Origin: an uncultured Alphaproteobacteria bacterium
GTDB taxonomy: Bacteria > Pseudomonadota > Alphaproteobacteria > RF32 > CAG-239
Assembly (NCBI GenBank): GCA_934255405.1
Contig: CAKQNT010000009.1
Span: 485-64,484, forward strand
Length of the DNA stretch: 64,000 bases
Direction of reading: 5' to 3'
In this document: positions 41,894 to 44,044 of the stretch, one piece after another
How the letters are laid out: each line of letters begins with the position of its first letter
Position numbering within the stretch: position 1 is the stretch's first letter
Notes under the pieces: model-generated
What the model was told of the DNA's origin: nothing
The model's input: only the letters and a program-made list of their open reading frames with translations
The model's database searches: none
Position numbers and translations under genes: made by a program

Positions 41894-44044
41894 CGCTTTG
41901 CTTCCTTTCCAAATCAGATATGCTGTAATATGTAGCCGCTGCGTCGGTAGGGTTTGCACGTTATAGCTTCCTTTCCAAATCAGATATGCTATAATTTGCT
42001 TTGCCGTCTTTGGTCACTACTTGTTGTTATAGCTTCCTTTCCAAATCAGATATGCTATAATTCAATTCTTTTACTGTTATGCTTAAAGTCCGTTATAGCT
42101 TCCTTTCCAAATCAGATATGCTATAATCGACACCGTTTTGGTTCAAAAGAATATATCGTTATAGCTTCCTTTCCAAATCAGATATGCTATAATGCCCGTT
42201 CCCGATATTCTAAAGCCGTCCTTGTTATAGCTTCCTTTCCAAATCAGATATGCTATAATAACCAGACATACCGTGTATCCATTCAACACGTTATAGCTTC
42301 CTTTCCAAATCAGATATGCTATAATTTCCTTGTTCAGCTCTCAAGTAATTATCTTGGTTATAGCTTCCTTTCCAAATCAGATATGCTATAATACAATATA
42401 GCGTTTTTTCAGTTCCACACCGGTTATAGCTTCCTTTCCAAATCAGATATGCTATAATACGTTACGTAAAAAAAACGGCGGATTTCCGGTTATAGCTTCC
42501 TTTCCAAATCAGATATGCTATAATGTTCCATATTCACATGCTTCATTAATAACTGTTATAGCTTCCTTTCCAAATCAGATATGCTATAATGGATACTCAG
42601 TAACATTCGACGAAGACTTTGTTATAGCTTCCTTTCCAAATCAGATATGCTATAATTCAATTCTTTTACTGTTATGCTTAAAGTCCGTTATAGCTTCCTT
42701 TCCAAATCAGATATGCTATAATCGACACCGTTTTGGTTCAAAAGAATATATCGTTATAGCTTCCTTTCCAAATCAGATATGCTATAATGCCCGTTCCCGA
42801 TATTCTAAAGCCGTCCTTGTTATAGCTTCCTTTCCAAATCAGATATGCTATAATAACCAGACATACCGTGTATCCATTCAACACGTTATAGCTTCCTTTC
42901 CAAATCAGATATGCTATAATTTCCTTGTTCAGCTCTCAAGTAATTATCTTGGTTATAGCTTCCTTTCCAAATCAGATATGCTATAATACAATATAGCGTT
43001 TTTTCAGTTCCACACCGGTTATAGCTTCCTTTCCAAATCAGATATGCTATAATACGTTACGTAAAAAAAACGGCGGATTTCCGGTTATAGCTTCCTTTCC
43101 AAATCAGATATGCTATAATGTTCCATATTCACATGCTTCATTAATAACTGTTATAGCTTCCTTTCCAAATCAGATATGCTATAATGGATACTCAGTAACA
43201 TTCGACGAAGACTTTGTTATAGCTTCCTTTCCAAATCAGATATGCTATAATCCGACAAAATGCCGTTTGCTAAATCAATTCGTTATAGCTTCCTTTCCAA
43301 ATCAGATATGCTATAATACAACGAAGTTACGGAAGACAAAGATTTTAGTTATAGCTTCCTTTCCAAATCAGATATGCTATAATTTCAAAAATCTTGTAAT
43401 CGCTCAAGTCATAGTTATAGCTTCCTTTCCAAATCAGATATGCTATAATACCCCGATCAGCAGCATAAAGGCTCGGGCGGTTATAGCTTCCTTTCCAAAT
43501 CAGATATGCTATAATTCACAATGTATTATAACGATTATTAAATTAGTTATAGCTTCCTTTCCAAATCAGATATGCTATAATCACTCTCATGCAAAAGGTG
43601 ATGTAGGTTTTGTTATAGCTTCCTTTCCAAATCAGATATGCTATAATAGATTGATAGCCTTTTGCCACCTGTTCAATGTTATAGCTTCCTTTCCAAATCA
43701 GATATGCTATAATAAATATTATAAACAAGAAAATGAATATCCAGTTATAGCTTCCTTTCCAAATCAGATATGCTATAATAAGACTTTATTCATAAAGCAA
43801 GTAAATGGAGTTATAGCTTCCTTTCCAAATCAGATATGCTATAATATCATGGTTCCAATTGCGCTTGACTAATTTGTTATAGCTTCCTTTCCAAATCAGA
43901 TATGCTATAATTTTGCTTTTGCCGCTGAATCGCTAGCTCCTGGTTATAGCTTCCTTTCCAAATCAGATATGCTATAATATGACGTAGCAGACCAATTCAT
44001 GATGGATTGTTATAGCTTCCTTTCCAAATCAGATATGCTATAAT
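41894..44044 (+). CRISPR. CRISPR array. Repeat consensus GTTATAGCTTCCTTTCCAAATCAGATATGCTATAAT (36 bp). There is one degenerate terminal repeat at 41894..41929, then 32 full repeats, with 32 spacers of 30-31 bp (23 unique).
   Basis: Direct reading gives a regular 66 bp periodicity. The first full repeat is 41960..41995 and the last is 44009..44044. Each repeat ends in TGCTATAAT. Confidence 0.95.

Follow-up and report, generated by a model that had tools for sequence, protein, structure and literature searches.

The question raised by this locus is whether its CRISPR array is expressed from an outside promoter or whether each repeat carries a promoter of its own. The original prediction held that every repeat ends in an extended -10 box. 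The repeats of the window (the whole stretch of 64,000 nucleotides analysed) were compared with one another and with related repeats.

41960..44044, plus strand (crRNA sense): CRISPR array of 32 identical 36-nt repeats
44036..44044, plus strand: extended -10 box TGCTATAAT, final copy of 32; the preceding ones end at 41995, 42061 ... 43978
41894..41929, plus strand: degenerate 33rd repeat, CGCTTTGCTTCCTTTCCAAATCAGATATGCTGTAAT, at the cas-distal and transcriptionally first end

The repeat unit, GTTATAGCTTCCTTTCCAAATCAGATATGCTATAAT, was present in 32 exact copies in the window, the first starting at 41960 and the last ending at 44044, with a period of 66-67 nt and spacers of 30-31 nt. Including the one after the degenerate repeat there were 32 spacers, 23 of them distinct. 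All 32 full repeats terminated in TGCTATAAT in the crRNA sense. Together with the preceding TA, this box makes up the last 11 nt of the repeat (TATGCTATAAT), which fit the pattern TRTGnTATAAT. The degenerate copy, which had been missed in the original prediction, begins with CGCTTTGCTTCC, finishes with ATGCTGTAAT and has TGCTGTAAT as its 3' end; its -10 box is weakened to TGTAAT by the change of the key A at hexamer position 2 to G. The claim that every repeat ends in an extended -10 box thus held for 32 of the 33 repeats and failed for this one.

When the repeat was read by eye, no TTGACA-like hexamer was found 16-18 nt upstream of TATAAT; a TTTCCA is present, only 12 nt upstream. A repeat lacking a -35 element fits an extended -10 promoter, for which the -35 is not needed. 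In the window, TGNTATAAT occurred 34 times (twice outside the array) against a shuffled expectation of ~3.8. Since all repeats copy a single sequence, this count carries no independent weight; the meaningful test is conservation over the 47 distinct related repeats described below.

The type of the locus was assigned from the neighbouring cas genes.

44102..44431, minus strand: cas2, 109 aa (Pfam CRISPR_Cas2, E = 6e-19; NCBIfam cas2)
44444..45346, minus strand: cas1, 300 aa, type II (NMENI) subfamily (Pfam Cas_Cas1; NCBIfam cas1_NMENI, 290 bits)
45349..48573, minus strand: cas9, 1074 aa from the ATG at 48573, compact II-C class

The cas9 product matched Pfam HNH_4, RuvC_III, Cas9_RuvC and Cas9_a and NCBIfam cas_Csn1 (680 bits). 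Its best relatives of solved structure are compact proteins of ~1,050-1,150 aa (E ~1e-130 to 1e-140), among them 6jdq and 8uza, which we take to be NmeCas9 and GeoCas9, respectively. A protein identical to this Cas9 (P0001) exists in public data. Neither csn2 (II-A) nor cas4 (II-B) was found at the locus, where only cas9, cas1 and cas2 lie adjacent at 44102-48573; the cas2 stop codon is 57 nt from the array, and upstream of cas9 are the tracrRNA and an unrelated dehydrogenase gene. The locus is a standard three-gene type II-C CRISPR-Cas9 system.

The short region between the array and cas2 was found to contain a hairpin.

44052..44089: hairpin with a 13-bp stem (stem-loop 44052-44083), followed on the plus strand by CTTTTT, in the interval from the last repeat to the cas2 stop codon

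The predicted folding energy of the stem-loop was -16.3 kcal/mol (z -6.1). Of 57 related arrays, 43 likewise had a hairpin with a T-run no more than ~45 nt beyond their last repeat, and the stem sequence varied between arrays. The hairpin is likely the terminator of the array transcripts and probably terminates the convergent cas operon as well. A bidirectional terminator had been placed at 44050..44090; the hairpin is real and conserved in relatives, but its exact site is 44052-44083 and its U-tract is weaker on the minus strand. The hairpin is located in the acquisition-side leader. Tentatively, a hairpin with a T-run positioned 7-10 nt past the cas2-proximal repeat might be a dedicated, conserved module of such arrays. 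If so, it would stop both the spacer-less transcript of the last repeat and any read-through before they became antisense to cas2, and it may also serve in the leader signal for spacer integration.

The strand of the crRNAs was established through the tracrRNA, which is encoded upstream of cas9.

48597..48625, plus strand: tracrRNA promoter, TTGACA, 17-nt spacer and TAATAT (promoter scan, 10/12 matches)
48632..48745, plus strand: tracrRNA, ~114 nt, ending in a run of seven T
48643-48676, plus strand: anti-repeat of the tracrRNA, with its core at 48651-48676
48680-48692 and 48694-48736: small nexus hairpin and terminator stem of the tracrRNA, following the anti-repeat and an AA

The core at 48651-48676 is the reverse complement of repeat nt 1-26, with G1 pairing as G-U, and the repeat:tracrRNA duplex had a predicted energy of -44.2 kcal/mol. 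The tracrRNA gave no match to the Rfam tracrRNA families; its layout agrees with the rules described for II-C tracrRNAs (PMC6546382). From the anti-repeat together with its promoter and terminator, it follows that transcription of the crRNAs proceeds along the plus strand, in the direction of cas2. Both the plus-strand sense and the direction towards cas2, convergent with the cas operon, had been predicted correctly. For the relatives, strand was called where an anti-repeat and a terminator lay on the tracrRNA-sense side with dG <= -13; 33 related loci gave the same crRNA sense, and the opposite was obtained in two weak cases only. Promoters in this host seem to resemble those of E. coli: the tracrRNA promoter is near the sigma-70 consensus, and of four tRNA upstream regions that were read, three have a -35 of the TTGAC type with an A/T-rich, -10-like stretch downstream.

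These data bear directly on the proposal that the array is read from the minus strand, co-directionally with cas9-cas1-cas2 as in II-A, which would make the plus-strand box irrelevant. The cas operon does head towards the array, and with a weak minus-strand U-tract in the hairpin some read-through is conceivable. Against this, the plus-strand tracrRNA complements the plus and not the minus repeat transcript, as it does in the 33 relatives. Furthermore, the Rfam model CRISPR-DR34 matched every repeat on the plus strand (with sub-threshold scores only), and the antisense of the repeats never has the motif. Minus-strand expression is hence regarded as exceedingly improbable.

To assess the -10 box independently of copy number, 47 distinct repeats out of 59 related arrays were compared. 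The arrays come from several phyla; their record titles name Alphaproteobacteria, Campylobacterota, Gastranaerophilales, Clostridia, Bacilli, Fusobacteria and others. The profile of the repeat 3' end over the 47 repeats was that of an extended -10 element, TRTGnTATAAT. T31 and A32 were invariant (47/47) and T36 was present in 45 of 47; T28 was found in 42 and G29 and T26 in 41 each, and 42 repeats had a purine at position 27. Position 30, the 'n' of the motif, varied freely (0.19 bit). The pattern TGnTAnnnT formed the 3' end of 35 of the 47 repeats on the crRNA strand and was absent from the antisense strand throughout. The 5' end of the repeat mirrors TATAA, but closes in G in 45 of 47, so that the antisense reads TATAAC and lacks the essential final T. 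The profile, the free 'n' and the strand asymmetry are as expected of a sigma-70 extended -10 element.

Two other constraints could act on the same nucleotides. Within the window's clade, tracrRNA pairing can reach only 4-7 of the 10 positions of repeat nt 27-36, compared with 26/26 in the repeat core for the closest relatives; pairing therefore does not explain the conservation of the 3' segment in this clade. In the Clostridia-type relatives, the tracrRNA pairs along the whole repeat, with 8-10 of 10 positions at nt 27-36, so the promoter and pairing constraints overlap there. TATAA also belongs to the inverted symmetry of the repeat ends, and its conservation may partly reflect recognition by Cas1-Cas2 or RNA pairing.

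Taken to its limit, this would mean that the 3' end is conserved only for integration or for Cas9/tracrRNA binding, and that its likeness to a promoter is coincidental. Type II repeats in general have terminal inverted motifs, and here nt 2-6 (TTATA) and nt 31-35 (TATAA) are mutually reverse complementary; decay at the outer end of the oldest repeat is general too. T28, G29 and T36, which are without mirrored partners (T/T at positions 8-9 and G at position 1), are left unexplained by the symmetry, as is position 30, which is free and faces the conserved G7. In relatives, moreover, promoter function has been established by mutational and start-site data. We therefore judge it very unlikely that integration or binding is the sole reason for the conserved end.

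The degenerate repeat at the cas-distal end carries mutations at five of its first six nt, and the predicted energy of its duplex with the tracrRNA was reduced to -36.9 kcal/mol, from -44.2 with the intact repeat. At ~13 related loci, remnant cas-distal repeats had lost positions 1-27 (at least 10 mismatches) and kept the TGnTATAAT part (0-1 mismatch), which speaks for the promoter reading. The mutated 5' end of the extra repeat can form a helix with 41861-41870, with weak significance (z -2.3). Sequestration of the extra repeat by an upstream helix was rejected as a feature of the family, since 43 relatives gave a mean of 6.9 pairs against 7.5 in shuffled sequence. A weaker possibility is that this II-C system has, in the helix seen here, a leader-repeat hairpin resembling those of II-A; earlier surveys had found no such feature.

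Upstream, the gene at 40888-41856, part of a galE-like operon, lies on the same strand as the array and 37 nt from the degenerate repeat. No intrinsic terminator was found between this gene and the array, which means that read-through could also yield a long precursor. A conventional precursor would originate from this operon or from a promoter within 41857-41893 and be cut by way of tracrRNA and RNase III, and the -10-like boxes would be inactive by-products of the conservation of the repeat ends. Pairing of the tracrRNA is possible over almost the full repeat, giving a substrate for RNase III, and Campylobacter and Neisseria also show RNase III processing. Such a scheme leaves unexplained why the sigma-70 extended -10 consensus is found at positions 26-29 and 31-36 of 47 distinct repeats, with a free 'n' and on the crRNA strand only, in a segment with which the tracrRNA of the window's clade hardly pairs. 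In addition, both experimentally studied relatives start transcription inside their spacers, and the mutated extra repeat agrees with a published strategy for blunting read-through products. A conventional precursor as the sole source of guides is considered unlikely, and some read-through may add to what the internal promoters supply.

The best explanation, to which we assign a probability of about 0.85, is a standard II-C locus with a promoter within each repeat and a start inside the following spacer; most likely, the box at each repeat end starts a separate guide RNA within each spacer. The last 11 nt of each repeat (TATGCTATAAT) would serve the housekeeping sigma factor as an extended -10 promoter that needs no -35, and RNA polymerase would initiate ~5-8 nt into the spacer downstream. 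The transcripts would run on the plus strand through the next repeat, often further, and stop at 44052-44089, just before cas2. The tracrRNA (48632-48745, plus strand) would then pair with the repeat portion of the transcript and load it into Cas9. Its 3' side would possibly be trimmed by RNase III, while the 5' end of the guide would be fixed by transcription initiation. The guides would contain roughly 23-26 nt of spacer. By analogy with the start sites in Campylobacter (nt 5) and Neisseria (nt 6), initiation at spacer nt 5-7 would give guides of 24-26 nt, rather than the 22-24 nt given in the original prediction. If each spacer has its own promoter, its expression is independent of the distance from any outside promoter. 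We infer the promoter activity of the repeat box at this locus from sequence and homology, and likewise the start positions and RNase III independence in this organism.

New spacers would enter at the cas2-proximal end, which is the end transcribed last. This was evident from 52 gut-metagenome arrays with an identical repeat, in which related arrays have 5' (cas-distal) spacers in common and differ on the cas2 side, a polarity resembling that of Neisseria and Campylobacter. No spacers were common to the window and these metagenomic arrays. Only one other contig, L083, had both an identical Cas9 and an array; this array was identical, duplication included, and the contig may belong to the same assembly. 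When the whole array was compared by BLAST with 50,697 phage records, only two imperfect matches (27-28 of 30 nt) were obtained, both to Microviridae capsid genes, and five scans of IMG/VR for exact patterns of spacer cores gave no match. A PAM could not be derived from the two imperfect protospacers, and confirmation of the strand through the PAM accordingly failed.

Repeat-embedded promoters are a published hallmark of type II-C, of which this locus is an ordinary new example. They were described by Zhang 2013 (Mol Cell 50:488), as quoted in other papers, and were extended to II-C systems generally in PMC4607530 (Pearson 2015), PMC7665894 and PMC12080349 (Feussner 2025). A promoter per repeat has been credited with position-independent spacer expression and with avoiding premature termination in long arrays (PMC7665894). 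The locus raises no new question, and it adds one further lineage to the published rule that type II-C arrays have a promoter per repeat. For this genome, the annotation is now fixed with respect to array strand, tracrRNA, leader side, terminator and a likely guide length of ~24-26 nt, and this will be useful for reconstituting the Cas9 of an uncultured gut bacterium.

The degenerate repeat can be compared with the suppression of extra-repeat crRNAs (ecrRNAs) in II-C systems, where mutations of the first cas-distal repeat are concentrated in its initial ~15 nt (Feussner 2025, PMC12080349). The locus is alike in its five mutated positions among the first six, in the predicted weakening of tracrRNA pairing and in a possible upstream helix. 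It is unlike in that no Rho-independent terminator lies upstream of the array, and in that the helix pairs with the extra repeat itself and not with the 'guide' region.

[quoted passage not shown] Its starts were mapped by dRNA-seq and primer extension to nt 5 within each spacer, downstream of GGTAAAAT (PMC3656092, Dugar 2013), whereas the start here is predicted. The C. jejuni repeat (…TATGGTAAAAT; PMC4607530) has the hexamer TAAAAT, compared with the full consensus TATAAT within TRTGnTATAAT here; its tracrRNA lies downstream of the array, and its arrays are far shorter (4-8 repeats).

The resemblance to Neisseria, which had also been predicted, is real and extends to repeat family and architecture, the Neisseria repeat sequence being verified in PMC12477760. 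N. meningitidis and N. lactamica share the gene order cas9-cas1-cas2 with a downstream array transcribed towards cas2, 36-nt repeats of one family (GTTGTAGCTCCCTTTCTCATTTCGCAGTGCTACAAT in Neisseria, GTTATAGCTTCCTTTCCAAATCAGATATGCTATAAT here), ~30-nt spacers, an extended -10 box in the 9 nt that close the repeat, entry of new spacers at a cas2-side leader and a tracrRNA of ~110 nt. In N. meningitidis the repeat-embedded promoters start transcription at the 6th nt (PMC12477760), and in Neisseria interference is independent of RNase III processing according to the literature. The systems differ in that the Cas9 proteins are only distantly related (the match to PDB 6jdq covers residues 5-794 only), and the tracrRNA here lies upstream of cas9 and divergent from it. 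The present host is an uncultured gut bacterium whose system is known from sequence, and its -10 hexamer is the perfect consensus TATAAT where Neisseria has TACAAT.

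The array extends from 41960 (start of the first repeat) to 44044 (end of the last) and consists of 32 exact copies of the 36-nt repeat GTTATAGCTTCCTTTCCAAATCAGATATGCTATAAT at a period of 66-67 nt, with 32 spacers, 23 of them distinct. The claim that every repeat ends in an extended -10 box held for 32/32 full repeats, all of which carry TGCTATAAT at their 3' end, but had missed a 33rd repeat one unit upstream of the array:

41894-41929, + strand, degenerate extra repeat, CGCTTTGCTTCC...ATGCTGTAAT

Here, five of the first six bases were mutated and the key A of the -10 hexamer was replaced by G. 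The motif occurred 34 times in the window versus approximately 3.8 times in shuffles, a raw count that does not test the motif independently, the repeats being copies of each other. Two 'ORFs' of 145 and 201 aa (41954-42391 and 43267-43872, + strand) were rejected as genes, being artefacts of repeat structure wholly inside the array.

Nine repeat-spacer units (42024-42618, 595 bp) were exactly duplicated in tandem at 42619-43213. ENA scaffold L083, possibly the same assembly, carries the identical duplication. Since smaller internal spacer duplications were also found in metagenomic arrays that share the window's repeat (e.g. loci L111 and L123), the nine-unit duplication may be real recombination and not an assembly artefact. 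Two spacers (43582-43611; 42591-42620 with its copy 43186-43215) matched major capsid protein genes of Microviridae, in small circular genomes from rodent faeces (PQ006588, 28/30; PQ006667, 27/30). The last spacer base was mismatched (T to C) in both, and no PAM was derivable from these two imperfect protospacer matches, which suggest gut microviruses among the targets of the array.

The cas genes lie directly to the right:

44102-44431, - strand, cas2, directly right of the array
44444-45346, - strand, cas1, matching the type II NMENI model
45349-48573, - strand, cas9, 1074 aa

Both csn2 and cas4 were absent from the locus, and the cas9-cas1-cas2 set therefore identifies a type II-C system; every membership feature open to testing here was present. 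Among solved proteins, the window Cas9 is best matched by compact Cas9s of about 1,050-1,150 aa. The closest genomes were MAGs of uncultured gut Alphaproteobacteria (Cas9 identity 59-63%), and human-associated metagenome assemblies contained an identical Cas9. The G+C content of the cas and array block (42001-48000) was 33-34%, compared with 42-45% in flanking housekeeping genes. Identical or near-identical repeats were present in MAGs labelled Alphaproteobacteria, 'Azospirillum sp.' and even 'Lactobacillaceae' (locus L017), with Cas9 identity of only 57-63%. Together, the low G+C and the varied labels suggest either horizontal transfer of the locus or mis-binned contigs.

The strand of crRNA transcription was assigned from the tracrRNA, which is preceded by a near-consensus sigma-70 promoter:

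48597-48625, + strand, tracrRNA promoter, TTGACA, 17-nt spacer, TAATAT

On the + strand, the sequence ATCTGATTTGGAAAGGAAGCTATAAT at 48651-48676 is the reverse complement of repeat nt 1-26, the first pair being G-U. Next come an AA junction and a small hairpin, then a terminator stem with a run of seven T, a layout described for II-C tracrRNAs (PMC6546382). The predicted repeat-tracrRNA duplex has an energy of -44.2 kcal/mol. Because a + strand tracrRNA is complementary to the + strand repeat, the crRNAs are + strand transcripts towards cas2, as originally predicted. When related loci were examined for an anti-repeat flanked on its tracrRNA-sense side by a strong terminator, 33 agreed on the crRNA sense GTTATAG...TATAAT; only two gave the opposite sense, weakly and probably spuriously. 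An 82-aa ORF (48710-48958, + strand) starts in the tracrRNA terminator region, before the dehydrogenase gene; it had no Pfam match, was also predicted on L083 by a gene caller, and may be spurious.

Conservation was assessed in 80 loci with related Cas9, which gave 59 arrays and 47 distinct 36-nt repeats under record titles of Alphaproteobacteria, Campylobacterota, Gastranaerophilales, Clostridia, Bacilli, Fusobacteria and others. Read in crRNA sense, the 3' ends gave the information profile of an extended -10 promoter, TRTGnTATAAT:

Position 26, T, 41/47
Position 27, purine, 42/47
Position 28, T, 42/47
Position 29, G, 41/47
Position 30, any base (free), 0.19 bit
Position 31, T, 47/47
Position 32, A, 47/47
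Position 33, T, 43/47
Position 34, A, 41/47
Position 35, A, 40/47
Position 36, T, 45/47

Positions 14-25, in mid-repeat, averaged only 0.44 bit. TGnTAnnnT formed the 3' end of 35/47 repeats and was never present on the antisense strand. The 5' end mirrors TATAA but starts with G in 45/47, and the antisense therefore reads TATAAC, without the essential last T. This strand asymmetry argues for a promoter; inverted symmetry of the repeat ends as sole cause leaves T28, G29 and T36 unaccounted for, as well as the free position 30, which faces a conserved G7.

Pairing with the tracrRNA was likewise rejected as sole cause. In the closest relatives, every position of the 26-nt core is paired; in the window's clade, only 4-7/10 of repeat nt 27-36 can pair, the corresponding anti-repeat segment having diverged (ACAACATCAA) to partial, G-U-rich pairing. 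In Clostridia-type relatives, tracrRNA pairing extends over the whole repeat, and pairing and promoter constraints therefore overlap in that group. In five of these (L043, L045, L049, L051 and L069; upstream of cas9, about 9,800-9,900), the anti-repeat fully complements the repeat 3' end, and the tracrRNA gene thus carries the repeat's T(G/A)nTATAAT box on its antisense strand. Of four tRNA upstream regions read, three had a TTGAC-type -35 and, downstream of it, an A/T-rich, -10-like stretch. Based on these and the tracrRNA promoter, the host appears to use an E. coli-like promoter grammar. Judged from these sequence patterns, the interpretation of one extended -10 box per repeat as a crRNA promoter is well supported.

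At this locus, TATGCTATAAT in each repeat would recruit the housekeeping RNA polymerase holoenzyme with no need for a -35 box, and transcription would start approximately 5-8 nt into the next spacer. The sigma-70 rule places the start at spacer nt 7. Measured starts are at spacer nt 5 in C. jejuni (PMC3656092) and nt 6 in N. meningitidis (PMC12477760). Transcripts would span one or more downstream units and stop at the 44052-44089 terminator. The tracrRNA would pair with the repeat to form the duplex bound by Cas9; 3' trimming by RNase III may occur, while the guide 5' end would not be RNase III-made. Starts at nt ~5-8 would give guides with ~23-26 nt of spacer, the 22-24 nt first proposed being slightly too short.

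The terminator postulated past the array was located as a predicted hairpin 3' of the cas2-proximal repeat:

44052-44083, terminator hairpin of 13 bp, then CTTTTT, dG -16.3 kcal/mol, z -6.1

An equivalent hairpin and T-run, with differing stem sequences, was found within about 45 nt past the last repeat in 43/57 related arrays. A metagenome scan found the identical repeat in 55 stretches. Related arrays with the same repeat had 5' (cas-distal) spacers in common and diverged at their 3' cas2-proximal ends; acquisition of new spacers thus takes place at the repeat transcribed last, in line with reports on Neisseria and Campylobacter (PMC12477760; PMC12080349).

At the cas-distal end, the remnant repeat in about 13 related arrays had lost nearly all of positions 1-27 and retained the promoter positions with 0-1 mismatch. 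This is expected of a module whose only task is transcription of the oldest spacer, but is not decisive, since oldest repeats generally decay at their outer end; in aggregate, the pattern has been published before (PMC12080349; PMC4607530). In the window, the extra repeat has a weakened -10 (TGTAAT), and expression of the oldest spacer (41930-41959) may therefore be poor. No terminator was found between the array and the co-directional epimerase-like gene (40888-41856), making read-through plausible. Because its 5' end is mutated, the extra repeat is predicted to pair with tracrRNA less strongly (-36.9 vs -44.2 kcal/mol for a full repeat), in keeping with the published proposal that type II-C systems blunt 'extraneous' crRNAs from read-through (PMC12080349). 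Just past the upstream gene, GAAGCGAAGC can base-pair with GCTTTGCTTC, the mutated 5' end of the extra repeat. The predicted hairpin (41861-41905; dG -17.7 kcal/mol, z -2.3) was equalled by 6/200 shuffles, and no enrichment of such a helix was seen across 43 related arrays. In read-through transcripts, the modelled helix with 41861-41870 could hide the extra repeat from tracrRNA.

The repeat-embedded arrangement was discovered in C. jejuni (Dugar 2013, PMC3656092) and N. meningitidis (Zhang 2013, as quoted by PMC7665894 and PMC12477760); the Neisseria repeat cited in the original prediction agreed with the published sequence. Surveying 132 type II genomes, Pearson et al. 2015 reported a gnTAnaaT logo at the II-C repeat 3' end, together with convergent orientation and a degenerate proximal repeat (PMC4607530), and later work takes such promoters as given (PMC7665894, PMC12477760, PMC12080349). 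The -10 box in repeats is thus a textbook property of type II-C arrays and not new, although GTTATAGCTTCCTTTCCAAATCAGATATGCTATAAT itself did not occur in the literature text searched. Mildly new are the leader-side terminator hairpin, at a conserved position across phyla, and, more tentatively, the 41861-41870 helix with the mutated extra repeat, which is not general among relatives. The window locus, known from sequence, resembles those of C. jejuni and N. meningitidis in the extended -10-type box of its repeats and adds another example of an already published type II-C feature.
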